Virus record (IMG/VR): IMGVR_UViG_3300029705_000088
Length of the DNA stretch: 64,000 nt
Reading direction: 5' to 3' (one strand)
From: a virus
Below, piece after piece: positions 4,153 through 64,000 of the stretch (its first letter is position 1; each line of letters starts with the position of its first letter). The notes under the pieces are model-generated. The model was not told the origin of the DNA. It made no database searches and worked only from the letters and a program-made list of their open reading frames with translations. The translations under genes were made by a program, and so were the position numbers.

Positions 4153-4212
4153 TTGGAATTTAATGTTTGGAAAGAATATAATTAGGATTAGATTCTTGAA
4201 GCTTTTAATGAT

Positions 4213-4738
4213 ATGAGTTAGAATTGTTAGTTTGATGAATTTATTTAGCAAGATTTTGTAAATAATATTTATCCATAGCTAATTAATTTTTTAGAAAATG
4301 AAAAAGAAATTAATACATGTTTTTTTAATGGTAATTATGAAAAAGTAAATAAAGGTTCTCAAGCAGAAGTATTTATAATAAATAATACTTATGTAATTAA
4401 ATTTATAAATAAACTTAATAAAAATTTTTTAAAATTGAAAAGAGAAAAAATATTAGAGTTAAATTAGAAGCATATTTTTAATTTAGCTCCTTCTTATATA
4501 ATTAATTTATTTAATAGTTATAATTATAGTAATGATTTGATAGAAAGAGCAAAAAGAAAAAATCCAAAAATATCCTATTATAATTTAGATACTATAGTTT
4601 TATAGCCATATTTTGAATCCTTTTTTGATATATTAAAAAAATATTAGCAATTAGTTAGTGGTTCATAGATGCATTTAGATATAACCAATACAGATAATAT
4701 TGGCATTTCATCTAAATCAAAAATTATTTATTTTGATT
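4213..4738 (+). CDS. kinase-like (APH/CotS-type nucleotide-binding N-lobe motif) protein, TAG-recoded
   Basis: Coherent only if TAG is read as sense (about 8 in-frame TAG). Motif NGNYEKVNKGSQAEVFIINNTYVIKF resembles a kinase Gly-loop and VxK. Start is uncertain. Confidence 0.3.
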
Positions 4739-4751
4739 GGTGATTTAAAAT

Positions 4752-5906
4752 ATGTTAAATATTATTATTCCTTGTTTTAATCATCATCAATATTTAGAAA
4801 AATGTTTATAGTCAATTAAATTAAATATTTCAAATTTATCAGAAATTATTGTTTATGTTGTTGATGATTGCTCTAAATATTCAACAGAATATCTTTATTT
4901 AATTGAAAAATATAAGCAATATTTTAATTGTTTATATTTAAAAACAGAAAAAAATTCTGGGCCTGGTAATGCTCGTAATATGGCATTAAAATTATTGAAA
5001 AATAATCAAGATGATTTTACAACCTTTATTGATGATGATGATATAATTATTAATGATATATTGTGTTTGCTTGATAATAAATATGATTTTATTATTACAT
5101 AGAAAAATTCTTCTGATAATATTATAGAATCTTCAAAAGAACCTTGTGATACTTTACAAGGTATTGTTTATAATAATTCTTTTTTAAAAAGATATAATTT
5201 AAATTTTCCTACTTATATGACAGATGGATGTGAAGATTCTGTTTTTAAAACTATAACAATGTTTTTGAGCTCAAATTATATTTGTAAAAATTATTAGTTT
5301 TATCAACGAATTTATAGAACTAATTCAAATTTTACTAGAAGTAATTGTATATGGATGGAATATTTTTATTAGCAAAAACTTATTACTATAAAAGATTAGA
5401 TGATATGGTTAAGCTGTTTATTCTATTATTTAGATGAAATAAAAGATTGTTGTTTAAATAATAATGATATAATTATAAAAATTTATTTTTTATTGTTTGA
5501 TATTTTATTTGATTCAGAGCAAATAATAAAAAATAATTTTAATTTAACTTTTTAGTTTATATTAATTATGATTTATGGAATTTTAAAGTATTACAATTTT
5601 AATTTAAAAATTTCTTCTTCATTATTGCGTAACGATAGAGATATAATAATTTTAGAATTTATTGAATTAATTAAAAATAATTTTAAATTAATAGATAATA
5701 ATATTGTTTTAATTAAAAATAATACTATTAAAAATGATCTAAATAATAGTTTTTATTTAAAAGAATATAAAAATTTATTTAATTCTTTTTTAGAGCTTCC
5801 ATCAACAACACAATATTATGATATTAAATCAATGATTAAATTATTTTCTCATAATTATTATAAAACATAGTTTGAAAATATAAGGGAGATAAATAATGAA
5901 TAAAAT
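4752..5906 (+). CDS. family 2 glycosyltransferase, TAG-recoded
   Basis: N-terminus LNIIIPCFNHHQYLEKCL(TAG)SI..EIIVYVVDDCS...DDDD is the GT2 signature. Several in-frame TAG. The end lies at TAA 5904-5906 if TAG is sense. Confidence 0.5.
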
Positions 5907-6781
5907 TCAATTTCATTTACCCGGATTATTTGAAAAATTTTATTTTTATTAGAATTTTATTCAAATACTAAAAAATAATTCAGAAAAATTTTATTCAGAT
6001 TTTGAAATAAGTTCTATATATGGAGCTCCATTAAATGCGTTATGGAATGGTGGAAGATATTAGTACAATTAGACGGCTATTTCAGAAGATTTTATATTAA
6101 AATTTTTAAAAATTAATAATATTTCTTGTAGTTTAATATTTTCTAATTCTTTATTAGAAGAAAAGCATTTATCAGACACGTATTGTAATTCATTATTGCA
6201 AAAATTTAATAATGAAAATAATAGTATAGTTCTTGCTTCTAATATATTAGAAATTTATATTAGAAAAAATTTTCCCAATTATAAAATTATATCATCTACA
6301 ACTAAATGTTTAAATAATGAAGAAGATTAGTTAAATGAATTAAATAAAAATTATGACATTGTAGTTTTAGATTATAATCATAATAATAATTTTGATTTTT
6401 TAAAATAGCTCCCAAATAAACACAAATGTGAATTTTTAATAAATCCAGTTTGTATCCCAAGATGTCAATATCGCAAATAGCATTATGAAAATATTTCATT
6501 ACAAGTATTAGATCCATCTATTAAACCTTTTAAATGTAAAAATGCTACTTGTCGTATTTTTGAATATACTAAAAATAATCCTTTATTTATAAGTAGAGAT
6601 TTTATAAAAAATATTTATATACCTATGGGATTTAAACATTTTAAAATTGAAGGTAGATTAACATCAGAAGAAAATTTATTAGAAATATTATTATATTATT
6701 TAGTAAAACCTGAATATTAGGATGAAATTCGTCAAAAAATGAATGAATTAAATAATAAAATCTTAATTTGATTTTTATAAA
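5897..6781 (+). CDS. hypothetical Cys-rich protein, TAG-recoded
   Basis: RBS aagggag before the ATG at 5897. Coherent ORF with about 6 in-frame TAG and CxxC motifs. Ends at a TGA inside the next promoter -35 region. Confidence 0.35.
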
Positions 6782-6820
6782 AAAATATGATATAATATAT
6801 ATAGAAAATCAAAAAAGATA
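6778..6820 (+). promoter_or_regulatory. conserved phage promoter
   Basis: TTGATT at 6778, TATAAT at 6801, then ATATATAGAAAAT. Confidence 0.55.
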
Positions 6821-6914
6821 AAAAAATAAAAATTTTTAGGACAAGAGTTTTTAAGAAATTTAAAACTTTTTTGATTAATAATACATTTCTTTTATTTTGA
6901 TTAAAAATTATTAT

Positions 6915-6958
6915 TTGAAAATAATAAAAAAATATGATATAATATTTATAGAAAATAA
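6915..6958 (+). promoter_or_regulatory. conserved phage promoter
   Basis: TTGAAA at 6915, TATAAT at 6938. Drives the permuted tRNA-like locus. Confidence 0.55.
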
Positions 6959-6960
6959 GA

Positions 6961-7101
6961 AAGACGATTACAGCAATTTATTTTAATTATTTTTATGTGC
7001 TGACAACACCCGGGTCGTGGGTTCAAGTCCCACTTTCTATCTTAGCAGATAGAAATAGCTCAGTTGGTAGAGCAGGTAAAAGAAAATATTAAATCGTCTT
7101 G
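6961..7101 (+). ncRNA. tRNA-like element with halves in permuted order (3' T-arm/acceptor segment upstream of 5' acceptor/D-arm segment), enclosed by a 9-bp inverted repeat
   Basis: T-arm gtggg-ttcaagt-cccac plus 3' acceptor tttctat precede the 5' acceptor atagaaa (perfect complement) plus D-arm gctcagttggtagagc. Flanked by aagacgatt (6961) and aatcgtctt (7093). No anticodon stem could be reconstructed. Confidence 0.3.
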
Positions 7102-7125
7102 TAAAATTAAATAAAAAATTTTAAT

Positions 7126-7165
7126 TTGATTTTTATAAAAAAATATGATATAATATATATGTAAA
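7126..7165 (+). promoter_or_regulatory. conserved phage promoter
   Basis: TTGATT at 7126, TATAAT at 7149. Precedes the structured RNA region. Confidence 0.55.
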
Positions 7166-62139: not shown

Positions 62140-63069
62140 ATGAAATATTTAAATCAAACCCCAACACAATGTATTTTAACAGATAGTACCTGCTATAAAG
62201 GGACAAAACCTATGACTGTTTTAGGTGTATTATGGCATAGTACTGGCGCAAATAATCCTACTTTAAAAAGATATGTTTAGCCAAGTAAAACTGACCCTAA
62301 ATATGAAGAATTAATGACAATGATTGGAACTAATAAATATAATAATAGTTATAATCAAATTGATATTTAGTCTGGTTTAAATGCTTGGATTGGTAAATTA
62401 GCAGATGGAAGTGTTACCACTTTATAGACTTTACCTTGGACTTATCGTCCATGGGGTTGCGGCAGTGGTGAAAATGGTTCATGTAATAATGGATGGATTC
62501 AATTTGAAATTTGTGAAGATGATTTAACAAATAAAGAATATTTTGATACAGTATATAAAGAAGCTTGTGAATTAACAGCTTATTTATGCAAAACATTTAA
62601 TATAGACCCGCATGGTTATGTTGAAGTTAATGGGAAAAAAATTCCTACAATTCTTTGTCATAAAGATGCCCATGCTCTTGGAATGGGCAATAATCATGGA
62701 GATGTAATGCACTGGTTTCCAAAATATGGAAAAAATATGGAAACAGTTAAAAATGATGTACAATCTATTTTAAATTCAGTACAACCTGAAATTTAGCAAC
62801 CGCAACCAGACCCAATTCCCTCTACACCAGTCACTTTACCAAATCAATCCAATAGTTTAACACAAGAATAGTTTAATAAAATGATGAATAATTATCTTGT
62901 TAATTTAGCTAAATAGCCACCAAATAGTTGGTCTGAAGAAGCGCGAAAATGGTGTGAGGAAAATGGTATTATTAAAGGTGATATGACAGGTAATGGTATG
63001 TATCGTAAATTTTTAACAAGAGAAGAAGCCGCTACTTTAATTTATAGATTACATGGGCAAGAAAAATAA
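62140..63069 (+). CDS. N-acetylmuramoyl-L-alanine amidase (Amidase_2/PGRP-type) endolysin, TAG-recoded
   Basis: TKPMTVLGVLWHSTGANNP ... ILCHKDAHALGMG..HGD matches the Zn-amidase_2 core. About 6 in-frame TAG. RBS agaaggagg. Confidence 0.5.
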
Positions 63070-63382
63070 TAAAAATCAAAAAAAAGAATTTTCTAAAGTG
63101 CTATTAATCCAAGAGTCAGCATTATTATGGATATTGACCTTGTCTTTTATAGGATTAGCATTTTATTGTATTTTTTGCGGTTATATGGGTTCTTTACCTT
63201 GGTTAGCGGCAATGATAAGTTTTCCGTGGACCGCTTATGGAGTAAGTCAAGTATTCTATTATAAAAAAAGTACAGTAGAAAATTCTAAAGATGGTATAAA
63301 GTTTGAATCTGTTATGGCAGAAGTAAATGCTATATATGGTAATTCTGTTCCACAAATTGATTGGGGAGTAAATGAAGAATAG
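63053..63382 (+). CDS. holin-like membrane protein
   Basis: Two TM helices, a charged N-terminus, and position next to the amidase. Confidence 0.45.
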   Translation: MGKKNNKNQKKEFSKVLLIQESALLWILTLSFIGLAFYCIFCGYMGSLPWLAAMISFPWTAYGVSQVFYYKKSTVENSKDGIKFESVMAEVNAIYGNSVPQIDWGVNEE

Positions 63383-63463
63383 TAGAATATAAATTCTAAT
63401 ATTGTTACAGAAGAAAATTTAAATGATTACATTCCAGATATTAATTATGGAATTTAATATAAG

Positions 63464-63500
63464 GGCTAAAGATTAAAATCTTTAGCCCCATTTTTATTTT
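63464..63500 (+). terminator. rho-independent terminator
   Basis: gggctaaagatt-aa-aatctttagccc hairpin plus T-tract. Confidence 0.55.
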
Positions 63501-63503
63501 TAT

Positions 63504-63540
63504 TGACTTTTATTAAAATATATGATATAATAAAAATAAA
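63504..63540 (+). promoter_or_regulatory. conserved phage promoter (16-bp spacer)
   Basis: TTGACT at 63504, TATAAT at 63526. Confidence 0.5.
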
Positions 63541-63554
63541 AAAGGAGAAAATAA

Positions 63555-63840
63555 AATGAATATTAATCATTTAAATATTTCTGATGGCGATACTTTATTA
63601 ATTTCTTTTGATTAGAATATAGATAGAGAAACAGCTAATGATATTATGAAACGTCTTGAAGATTTATTTCCTTCAATTAATTTAATGGCTATTCGTAATG
63701 GATGCATTAATAATATATCTATTATTCATAATGATAATCAATTTTTATAGACATCTTTAACATCTTATCCATATAATAATTGCGATGGTGTCGCTATTAC
63801 AGCAAATAAATTAGAAGATATTACATTAAGTACTTTGTAA
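63555..63840 (+). CDS. hypothetical small protein, TAG-recoded
   Basis: ATG after promoter 63504-63540. Coherent with 2 in-frame TAG. Confidence 0.3.
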
Positions 63841-63847
63841 GATTTAC

Positions 63848-63890
63848 TTGACAATATAAAAAAAATATGATATAATATATATATATAAAA
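63848..63890 (+). promoter_or_regulatory. conserved phage promoter
   Basis: TTGACA at 63848, TATAAT at 63871. Confidence 0.55.
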
Positions 63891-64000
63891 TAAAATAAAA
63901 TATAGAATAGTAAATATAATATTAATATATAAATTAATTAAATAATATATAAATATTAATATATATATTTACTATTTTTATTCAAAAGGAAAATAATATG

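Follow-up and report, generated by a model that had tools for sequence, protein, structure and literature searches.

A second anticodon-like hairpin, carrying the glutamine triplet CUG, in the predicted amber suppressor tRNA of a recoded phage

Introduction

How can a phage that reads the amber codon as sense have its suppressor tRNA charged with the right amino acid by a host that keeps the standard code? The question is raised by a 64,000-nucleotide (nt) stretch of viral DNA, IMG/VR record IMGVR_UViG_3300029705_000088 (hereafter the window, in whose full length all positions are numbered). Here TAG appears to be translated, and a tRNA with the anticodon CUA is encoded at 19204-19298 (+). Between its anticodon arm and its T arm this tRNA has an extra hairpin that presents CUG, the anticodon of tRNA-Gln, in its loop. 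The charging of such suppressors in a standard-code host was stated to be an unresolved problem by Borges et al., and a copy of the isotype-matched anticodon gives a concrete hypothesis for it. Amber recoding itself and the association of suppressor tRNAs with a ribozyme have been described before. The tRNA architecture, by contrast, is apparently new: extra arms that bear an anticodon were not found described in the literature searched, with most subscription journals lying outside that search.

Results

The presence of a CUA tRNA had been claimed in a first-pass annotation of the window and was borne out. ARAGORN returned a tRNA of 95 nt, the only one in the window with the anticodon CUA, and the Rfam tRNA model matched end to end at 19204-19297 (53.7 bits, against a gathering score of 29). 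The minimum free energy fold showed acceptor, D, anticodon and T arms together with one additional hairpin, giving five arms (Table 1). The decoding anticodon arm follows directly after position 26 and its loop has the canonical U33 and A37. The additional hairpin lies in a variable region of 27 nt (19246-19272) and is itself like an anticodon arm, with U at the equivalent of position 33, A at the equivalent of position 37 and CUG in the centre; in RNAfold a U.G and a U-A pair can extend its stem, leaving CUG as a triloop. Each hairpin is canonical relative to one of its neighbours, the CUA arm in coming after position 26 and the CUG arm in having a 5-nt loop and then the T stem on its 3' side.

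The acceptor end was then compared with that of tRNA-Gln. The window tRNA has A.C, a mismatch, at pair 1:72, and it lacks an encoded CCA, alone among the 23 tRNAs of the window. The identity set of E. coli glutaminyl-tRNA synthetase (GlnRS) consists of a weak or unpaired 1:72, G73, G2:C71, G3:C70, G10 and the anticodon bases U35 and G36. The window tRNA has the weak 1:72 and G73 of this set; G2:C71 and G10 are also present and 3:70 is C:G, and identity sets vary among bacteria. The decoding anticodon provides U35 but has A36, and a complete C-U-G is found on the extra arm only.

Several other identities were rejected. ARAGORN labels the tRNA 'Pyl', which is due to the anticodon alone: a 27-nt variable region, a canonical T loop (GGTTCAAATCC) and a 5-bp (base pair) anticodon stem argue against tRNA-Pyl, for which a variable loop of 3 nt, a shortened D loop, a 6-bp anticodon stem and an atypical T loop would be expected, and no Pyl genes (pylS, pylBCD) were found among the Pfam matches of the window. 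A tRNA-Sec identity was rejected as well. The variable region was also rejected as an intron, as it folds into a simple hairpin whose sequence is conserved, while the introns of bacterial tRNAs belong to group I and are sited in the anticodon loop. The first-pass annotation had called the tRNA unusual and not a simple derivative of its neighbours, and indeed it has no clear parent among the window's own tRNAs. Its description of the variable region as type-II-like did not hold, for the region is not a Ser, Leu or Tyr arm; it is a second anticodon-arm-like hairpin with a CUG loop instead.

Recurrence of this architecture was sought by scanning IMG/VR for a CUA anticodon loop and a T loop at long distance and running ARAGORN on the matches; all counts from these scans are among the matches listed, and frequencies drawn from them are rough. 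Of 39 distinct CUA tRNAs, 25 combined a Gln-type acceptor end with a hairpin whose loop has the form NN-CUG-AN. The stems of these arms are 2-5 bp long and come in 13 versions, with C-U-G-A invariant throughout. The commonest loops are cuCUGaa, uuCUGag and ccCUGaa, and the first of these is also the commonest anticodon loop of phage tRNA-Gln(CUG). One member of the class carries UUG, the other Gln anticodon. At the acceptor end 1:72 is U:A, A.C or U.U and never G:C, and G73 is present in 16 of 24. The remaining long CUA tRNAs were Tyr-like (84 nt, A73) or Leu/Ser-like.

If the extra arm copies the anticodon of the amino acid carried, opal (UCA) suppressors that insert Trp should present CCA, and this prediction was tested and borne out. 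Of 43 distinct long UCA tRNAs, 26 had UCCA(A/G) in the extra arm. In 18 of the 26 this forms a 7-nt loop, (cu/gu)-CCA-aa, on a stem of at least 2 bp (5-7 bp in 17), with 16 versions of the stem; about 8 more have a 9-nt loop, and most of the other long UCA tRNAs resemble genuine tRNA-Sec. The bodies are tRNA-Trp-like, with A1-U72 in 17 of 27 and G73 in 25 of 27, and ordinary phage tRNA-Trp most often have cuCCAaa as their anticodon loop. Examples are found in loci L369, L355, L243 and L340.

A third class was not planned for. tRNA-Ile(UAU) with a long variable region was noticed in the same loci and confirmed by a dedicated scan, in which 24 of 26 distinct long tRNA-Ile(UAU) had a hairpin of 3-5 bp whose loop has the form YA-GAU-NN and reads cagatta in 16 of them; its triplet, GAU, is the usual anticodon for Ile. 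A73 was present in 23 of the 24 and there were at least 12 different stems (example loci: L133, L148, L151, L416 and L439-L548).

In a fixed-register alignment 87.9% of the stem cells of the amber class were paired, compared with 55% in shuffles, and 97.5% in the opal class; as admission to the sets required at least 2 bp in the chosen register, the paired fraction is inflated for the inner pairs. The covariation score was 0.739 for the amber class against 0.167 when shuffled (0 of 500 shuffles as high), slid registers reaching at most 0.18, and 1.145 against 0.275 for the opal class. Covarying stems and an unchanging triplet are common to all three classes.

Triplet and isotype were then compared in a strict cross-table of tRNAs with long variable regions, requiring a stem of at least 3 bp, a 7-nt loop and a centred triplet. 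A CUG hairpin was found in 23 of 43 CUA tRNAs but in 3 of 485 others (Fisher p = 2e-25), a CCA hairpin in 17 of 43 UCA tRNAs but in 6 of 485 others (p = 8e-16), and a GAU hairpin in 25 of 31 UAU tRNAs but in 1 of 497 others (p = 4e-36). The ordinary phage tRNA-Gln, tRNA-Trp and tRNA-Ile(GAU) of the same loci have no extra arm. When ochre (UUA) suppressors with a long variable region were sought, there were only three among the matches listed, all Leu/Ser-like and without an anticodon copy, and no fourth class emerged from them. By a test that is crude, the loci being short and crowded with tRNA genes, loci with a CUG arm showed a median gain in open reading frame (ORF) coverage of 0.21 when TAG was taken as sense, against 0.036 for other loci, and 10 of 24 loci with a CCA arm looked TGA-recoded and none TAG-recoded.

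These results suggest that the extra arm is very probably an isotype-specific mimic of an anticodon arm that is under selection. One alternative is a structural relic: the arm might derive from a duplication or insertion beside the ancestral anticodon arm, or serve as a generic stabilising arm, with a triplet that has no function. Duplication is plausible given that the extra and decoding arms lie side by side, and most phage CUA tRNAs do without the arm. A functionless leftover would be expected to decay, however, and here the triplet and its 3' A are invariant although the stems (13, 16 and at least 12 versions) and the tRNA bodies have diverged, and the cognate triplet is kept in three independent classes. 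A relic is for these reasons very unlikely.

Among bacterial assemblies taken at one genome per species, tRNAs with a CUG arm were found mostly on contigs of Bacillota (Oscillospiraceae, Faecalibacterium, Acutalibacteraceae, Erysipelotrichaceae, Eubacteriales), and several of them share the agccccg acceptor strand and A1.C72 of the window tRNA. The host of the window phage is probably a standard-code bacterium of the Bacillota. As a separate observation, two CUA tRNAs lie near each other in four loci drawn from phages and from contigs of metagenome-assembled genomes (L093 and L123, in both of which they are adjacent; L114, about 430 nt apart; and L652); in each, one is 89-94 nt long with a CUG arm and the other is an ordinary tRNA of 73-75 nt.

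The first-pass annotation had left open which amino acid TAG encodes, having read Q or F from flotillin and S, A or W from the MetK-like gene. The question was addressed with 80 IMG/VR loci containing relatives of the window's endolysin, which were searched by tblastn with every TAG-containing protein; residues opposite TAG were tabulated in ungapped contexts only, and only where the stretch of 6 residues to each side of TAG contained 4 or more identities. Residues 281, 311 and 330, all in the conserved amidase domain of the endolysin, correspond to Q in 76 of 76, 73 of 80 and 74 of 74 homologues, and TAG itself recurs at these positions in 5, 1 and 7 additional homologues. The flotillin site (residue 157) faces Q in 12 of 12. 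The PhoH site (residue 168) faces Q in 14, S in 8 and T in 2, and residue 275 of the product of gene 5896-6771 faces Q in 17 of 22. The MetK site proved uninformative as a guide, for it falls in a gapped and variable stretch when compared with solved MetK structures.

Altogether Q is found at 6 of 15 TAG sites, including every near-invariant column, and the other nine are variable columns (E, E, K, K, R/K, T, G, L/F and A/K/Q). Summed BLOSUM62 scores over the 15 sites were 29.8 for Q, 17.7 for E, 14.0 for K, 7.4 for R and 0.8 for S, with the remaining amino acids lower. For the GT2 island, the columns facing TAG in the homologues were mostly variable (T, E, E, R/K, G and L/F); they fitted Gln weakly and were entered only into the summed score. 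Codon usage points the same way: the six TAG-rich genes have 43 TAG and no CAG, and CAG is in free use in the TAG-poor genes (26, 20, 14, 14 and 13 in five of them), so TAG occupies the places of CAG. A 2025 preprint in which 213 phage suppressor tRNAs were assayed (bioRxiv 10.1101/2025.10.30.685624) reports insertion of Gln by 28 of 29 tRNA-CUA from phages when tested in E. coli extract, and validation of code 15 by metaproteomics is reported in PMC9523058. Judged from the sequence, TAG almost certainly stands for Gln (code 15), with the tRNA at 19204-19298 as the suppressor.

These data also bear on whether the tRNA could be a true type II suppressor and TAG encode Ser, Leu or Tyr. Its variable region is long (27 nt), Tyr-like and Leu/Ser-like CUA tRNAs do occur in other phages, and one TyrRS:tRNA-CUA pair has been reported (bioRxiv 10.1101/2025.10.30.685624). 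G73 is common to tRNA-Ser and does not discriminate by itself. Against this, S scores 0.8 and Q 29.8 at the TAG sites, with L and Y lower still; the hairpin is set between single-stranded linkers of 7 and 5 nt where type II arms have 0-2 nt; the D loop is small, with 7 nt, and the first pair is the A1.C72 mismatch; and the acceptor end of the class resembles that of phage tRNA-Gln. A type II identity was rejected on these grounds, and such a suppressor is extremely improbable.

At the level of genes, the claim that TAG is read as sense was borne out. When TAG was taken as sense, stop-to-stop coverage by ORFs of at least 100 amino acids rose from 0.69 to 0.825. An in-frame TAG is present in 22 of the 60 ORFs of this length. 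About 16 of the 22 are credible genes and require TAG read-through, the others having been dropped as ORFs overlapping RNA genes (7420-7803 and 12951-13256, both rejected as genes), one weak minus-strand ORF, ORF 787-1599, which is doubtful as its TAG at codon 12 is possibly upstream of the true start, and two ORFs with a terminal TAG. Pfam domains run continuously across TAG in GT2, the MetK N-domain, Band_7/Flot, and VgrG3_C with Amidase_2; in the PIN-PhoH protein TAG falls in the linker separating the two domains. The tail-fibre labels are backed by PHROGs. In the tail-fibre-like gene at 16540-17928 the C-terminal domain is paralogous to that of 24030-26282, and its TAGs face E, K and E in the paralogue. 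TAA and TGA remain stops: the 60 ORFs end in 49 TAA and 11 TGA, as the ORF definition dictates, and two stops cited earlier as examples (TGA at 18661-18663 and TAA at 17926) were correct on inspection.

The uneven density of TAG noted in the first pass was also confirmed, with 24 at 4153-6771, 11 in the endolysin and almost none at 37.5-57.7 kb. Among the genes of nicotinamide adenine dinucleotide (NAD) metabolism and repair, which the first pass had as free of TAG, none has an internal TAG; NadE and NADAR each carry one at the very end. These terminal TAGs and the three of gene 46512-46883 are the exceptions in the 37.5-57.7 kb region. In NADAR 8 residues lie between the end of the Pfam match and the TAG, and in NadE about 40 between the end of the NAD_synthase match and the TAG; TAG may still act as the stop of both genes early in infection and be read through later. 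Recoding is biased towards structural and lysis genes, and the putative early genes would be readable under the host code. The earlier suggestion of recoding of the gut-phage type, with a phage-encoded suppressor tRNA, is supported.

The tRNA does have a consensus promoter of its own, as first proposed: TTGACA and TATAAT separated by 17 nt (19095-19123, +), with 12 of 12 matches and a TG extension. Its -10 region is one copy of a motif, AAATATG(A/T)TATAATAT, found 28 times on the + strand against 1.1 expected.

As a wider observation on promoters, the extended -10-like 16-mer AAATATGATATAATAT, with its 28 + strand sites against 1.1 expected, stands before tRNA units and many genes (for example at 1615, 6783, 6930, 7141, 9888, 14422, 17944, 19110 and 19467, and further on at 33220, 38695, 46922, 55133 and 63863) and is absent from the minus-strand tail-fibre operon.

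Downstream, a predicted theta ribozyme adjoins the tRNA at its 3' end directly after C74, with predicted cleavage 5' of G19299. The segments are GGATATA, A, TACTTCC, TCC, T, CC, TCGT, GG, TATATCT, GG, ATTGCG, CTAAAT and GGAAGTA, to be set against the RNArobo motif printed as P1, J, P2, ACC, T, CC, NCGY, GGT, P1', GG, L4, CTAA(N) and P2' (PMC10879173, Supplementary Data File 2). P1 with a G1.U wobble, P2, P3, P1.1 (CC of L3 with the GG after P1) and a J4/2 starting from the catalytic C (CTAA) are all present. There are two deviations: P3 has TCC as its strand in place of ACC or GCC, and J4/2 has 6 nt, one base more. No Rfam ribozyme family matched next to the tRNA, and the element was recognised only through the published motif list; its exact sequence was not found among the sequences listed in the accessible part of the PMC10879173 supplement.

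Discussion

The following course of events is proposed and is held, decoy step included, with moderate confidence. The window would come from a large phage with an array of 23 tRNAs that uses code 15 for its structural, lysis and some accessory genes. Genes without internal TAG, for RNA repair, tRNA maturation and NAD salvage, would be translated first under the host code; two of these early genes appear to stop at TAG, with a back-up TGA downstream. The suppressor tRNA would then be transcribed, its 5' end trimmed by RNase P and its 3' end cut after C74 by the theta ribozyme, and the cut end would be healed and completed to CCA. Candidates for this repair (a kinase, a phosphoesterase and a nucleotidyltransferase) are encoded in the TAG-free block, whose repair genes have the functions that a ribozyme-cut tRNA 3' end would need. 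Once charged with Gln the tRNA would read UAG, and the late genes could be made.

Within the tRNA, the CUA hairpin would decode and the CUG hairpin would be a decoy, bound by a reader of C34-U35-G36, that restores the identity lost on the change of anticodon to CUA. The reader may be GlnRS or, in hosts without GlnRS, a non-discriminating GluRS together with GatCAB. The arm may do its work where it stands, in the variable-arm position, or it may exchange positions with the CUA arm within a five-way junction. The same logic would hold for UCA decoders with a CCA (Trp) arm and for UAU decoders with a GAU (Ile) arm.

GlnRS, TrpRS and IleRS are strongly anticodon-dependent. In all three classes the decoding anticodon is outside the set of the enzyme in question (CUA against CUG/UUG, UCA against CCA, and UAU against GAU or lysidine-AU), and the acceptor end agrees with the implied isotype (a weak 1:72 and mostly G73 for Gln, A1-U72 and G73 for Trp, A73 for Ile). 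Suppressors derived from tRNA-Leu and tRNA-Ser, whose synthetases ignore the anticodon, would need no extra-arm copy and show none. In the GlnRS complex of Rould, Perona and Steitz (1991), the anticodon stem is reportedly lengthened by pairing at 32.38 and 33.37, with C34, U35 and G36 each splayed out into a pocket; the U.G and U-A pairs with a CUG triloop predicted for the extra hairpin resemble this form of the anticodon loop. According to PMC7590224, translation tolerates hairpins engineered into the variable arm. That the extra arm acts through the aminoacylating enzyme as a decoy is a reading towards which we lean slightly. Whether it represents a general phage device, in which a non-decoding hairpin separates what a tRNA reads from what it carries across the three classes, appears evenly balanced.

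A number of points weigh against a decoy. The variable arm of known type II tRNAs is not directed at the anticodon-binding site of the synthetase. Most phage CUA tRNAs are armless: an unbiased sample of 71 contained 63 short ones, 6 with a CUG arm and 2 other long ones. Short CUA tRNAs were charged with Gln in E. coli extract (bioRxiv 10.1101/2025.10.30.685624), and so the arm is not generally required. Stems of the Gln class go down to 2 bp, and the selection of hairpins by register, described above, flatters the pairing of the inner positions. The loop of the Ile class departs from true tRNA-Ile at 33 (A, not U) and 37 (U, not A). In the window tRNA itself pair 3:70 is C-G, unlike the G3:C70 of E. 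coli tRNA-Gln, and nearest-neighbour typing of its body against 1090 phage tRNAs gave mixed isotypes, so that it is not recognisably Gln-like.

The concordance of triplet and isotype needs only a reader specific for that anticodon loop, and the mimic might be aimed at one other than the charging enzyme: a host anticodon nuclease, for which it would be a sponge, an enzyme that modifies anticodon loops, or the T-box leader of a host synthetase gene. A counter-defence role is often discussed for the tRNA arrays of phages, and the bacterial contigs with such tRNAs are mostly from Bacillota, a phylum in which synthetase genes are commonly under T-box control. This gives no reason, however, why the arm should be placed only on tRNAs whose anticodon has left the cognate set (CUA, UCA and UAU) while the ordinary tRNA-Gln, tRNA-Trp and tRNA-Ile(GAU) of the same phage loci are armless. 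A T-box, moreover, gauges the distance from anticodon to elbow, which an arm in the variable region would not match. A target of this kind is considered unlikely.

The canonical placement of each window hairpin relative to one neighbour could also mean that either may stack as the anticodon arm, in which case the tRNA would decode both UAG and CAG (by analogy UGA and UGG, or AUA and AUC/AUU, in the other classes). The arms of the Trp class would suit this, being a full 5-7 bp with 7-nt loops identical to real tRNA-Trp anticodon loops. Stems of 2-4 bp in the Gln class, on the other hand, make poor anticodon stems, and the loops of the Ile class mostly have A at 33, which is against a U-turn and decoding. 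For the window phage, an ordinary tRNA-Gln(UUG) is already encoded and the TAG-rich genes contain no CAG to be read. Such dual decoding is distinctly unlikely, and a decoy for charging remains the preferred reading.

The recoding closely resembles that of code-15 gut phages (crAss-like phages, Lak, the clades of Borges et al. and Phassvirus phAss-1), which also have TAG in structural and lysis genes, a phage-encoded tRNA(CUA), TAA and TGA as stops and early genes compatible with the standard code; the anticodon-bearing extra arm is absent from their descriptions. The window suppressor shares with supE tRNA-Gln(CUA) the anticodon, insertion of Gln, a weak first pair and G73. supE, however, is a 75-nt class I tRNA one anticodon base away from tRNA-Gln, whereas the window tRNA has 95 nt and a CUG hairpin, with a body that shows no recognisable relationship to the tRNA-Gln(UUG) which the phage itself encodes.

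Type II tRNAs and tRNA-Sec likewise have a helical arm that separates the anticodon arm from the T arm, and in the case of tRNA-Ser it is the variable arm, instead of the anticodon, that SerRS reads as an identity element. In those tRNAs, however, the length and orientation of the arm matter, not the sequence of its loop, and the linkers are 0-2 nt; the three classes described here have an invariant, isotype-specific loop triplet, linkers of 5-8 nt and synthetases that read the anticodon (Gln, Trp and Ile). A precedent for mimicry is the operator of thrS mRNA, in which an anticodon-loop-like hairpin is bound by the anticodon-binding domain of ThrRS. That mimic lies in an mRNA leader and represses translation, whereas one inside a tRNA would promote charging.

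Suppressor tRNAs(CUA) without CCA and with a theta ribozyme directly 3' have been described by Kienbeck et al. (2024, PMC10879173), in genomes that also encode an RNA ligase and a nucleotidyltransferase; the word 'variable' does not occur in the main text of that paper. Non-canonical arms are likewise tolerated in translation in engineered variable-arm tRNAs (Mukai 2020, PMC7590224) and in allo-tRNAs (PMC5389517), but these are synthetic aptamer tags or 8/4 and 9/3 Ser-type tRNAs and have no copy of the cognate anticodon.

If the proposed mechanism is correct, the extra arm would be a new type of tRNA identity element, by which the anticodon-dependent GlnRS, TrpRS and IleRS are made to serve reassigned or rare codons, and it would explain how the suppressors of recoded phages are charged by unmodified host enzymes. 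It would also provide a rule for genetic-code engineering: alter the decoding anticodon and hold identity through the decoy arm. For annotation, ARAGORN calls such tRNAs 'Pyl' or 'SeC', and the extra-arm triplet predicts the amino acid from the gene.

Genomic context

The features of the window are collected in Table 1. When 24 kb of the window were compared with GenBank phages by megablast there was no match, and no release factor or synthetase gene was found in the window.

Table 1 Positions of the tRNA elements and genes of the window
Feature	Position	Strand	Remarks
Suppressor tRNA, acceptor 5' strand agccccg	19204-19210	+	
Suppressor tRNA, D arm	19213-19227	+	4-bp stem, 7-nt loop
Suppressor tRNA, decoding anticodon arm	19229-19245	+	stem ccgga/tccgc (one C.C mismatch), loop CU-CUA-AA; CUA at 19236-19238
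Suppressor tRNA, linker aataagt	19246-19252	+	7 nt
Suppressor tRNA, extra arm	19253-19267	+	stem cctg/cagg, 7-nt loop UU-CUG-AG; CUG at 19259-19261
Suppressor tRNA, linker cagtt	19268-19272	+	5 nt
Suppressor tRNA, T arm	19273-19289	+	canonical, T loop GGTTCAAATCC
Suppressor tRNA, acceptor 3' strand cggggcc	19290-19296	+	
Suppressor tRNA, discriminator G73	19297	+	
Theta (minimal HDV-like, i.e. hepatitis delta virus-like) ribozyme, predicted	19299-19353	+	parse to published motif
Ordinary tRNA-Gln(UUG)	15733-15807	+	75 nt, without extra arm; ARAGORN, Rfam
AT-rich island, three genes	4153-6771	+	GC content 17-19%; 24 TAG, 0 CAG; highest TAG density in window
Unknown gene of island	4153-4743	+	
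GT2 glycosyltransferase of island	4752-5903	+	covered by homologues
Unknown gene of island	5896-6771	+	covered by homologues
Tail-fibre-like gene	16540-17928	+	6 TAG; PHROGs
Short MetK-like gene	20876-21679	+	TAG 21035; S-AdoMet_synt_N (residues 3-67) spans TAG at residue 54
Four minus-strand genes	23384-30679	-	1, 3, 1 and 4 TAG
Minus-strand gene	23384-23965	-	no family match
Tail-fibre gene	24030-26282	-	
Tail-fibre gene	26368-28065	-	PHROGs tail match
Tail-fibre gene	28148-30679	-	
Major-vault-protein (MVP)-like gene	33278-35740	+	TAG at codon 5 (33290); MVP shoulder and Vault_3 domains
Tail-fibre gene	35863-37491	+	3 TAG; PHROGs
Standard-code-compatible block	37493-57711	+	no internal TAG except in 46512-46883
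Nucleotidyltransferase	39258-40163	+	
RNA ligase	43574-44980	+	
Small gene inside otherwise TAG-free block	46512-46883	+	3 TAG; no family match
NadE	53266-54120	+	TAG 54112 at 0.99 of ORF, TGA 2 codons later
NADAR	54089-54586	+	TAG 54548 at 0.93 of ORF, TGA 12 codons later
PNK-like kinase	56571-57158	+	
Flotillin/SPFH gene	57752-59215	+	TAG 58220 (residue 157); Band_7 (residues 48-209) spans TAG
PIN-PhoH gene	60113-61393	+	TAG 60614 (residue 168)
Endolysin (VgrG3_C-like and Amidase_2)	61438-63069	+	11 TAG, 0 CAG
Membrane protein beside endolysin, possible holin	63053-63457	+	consecutive TAGs 63380 and 63383; no family match

The TAG of the MVP-like gene could lie upstream of the true start. 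Besides the enzymes in the table, the standard-code-compatible block encodes a tail protein, a Thg1-like enzyme, an RNase_T exonuclease and three metallophosphoesterases. It also holds an NAD-salvage set consisting of NAPRTase, NadE, NADAR, nicotinamidase, an NMNAT-like protein and Macro.

ARAGORN called 23 tRNA genes between 7.9 and 20.3 kb. A 24th tRNA-like sequence, at 9522-9586 (+), was found by Rfam only (36 bits, model positions 4-67). One of the tRNAs, a tRNA-Ser at 11372-11460 (+), has the unusual anticodon ACU, with A at the wobble position.

Further RNA-like elements lie before and within the array. A permuted tRNA-like element at 6995-7085 (+) consists of a T arm, an acceptor-like stem closed by a loop and a D arm, and matches the Y RNA-like family YrlA below threshold, at 34.3 bits where the gathering score is 69. 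It is followed at 7180-7890 (+) by about 700 nt of richer GC content (about 0.47) with no credible ORF. In this region 7422-7507 is tRNA-like: the acceptor stem, the D and T arms and a 3' ACCA can be made out, but the anticodon region is aberrant, with a 5-bp stem and a loop of 10 nt, and neither ARAGORN nor Rfam calls it. At 12899-13008 (+), just upstream of tRNA-Ile(UAU), Rfam matches 'drum' RNA below threshold (29 bits, gathering score 43).

Finally, this phage genome contains two SPFH/flotillin genes (45474-46457 and 57752-59215, +) together with the MVP-like gene.

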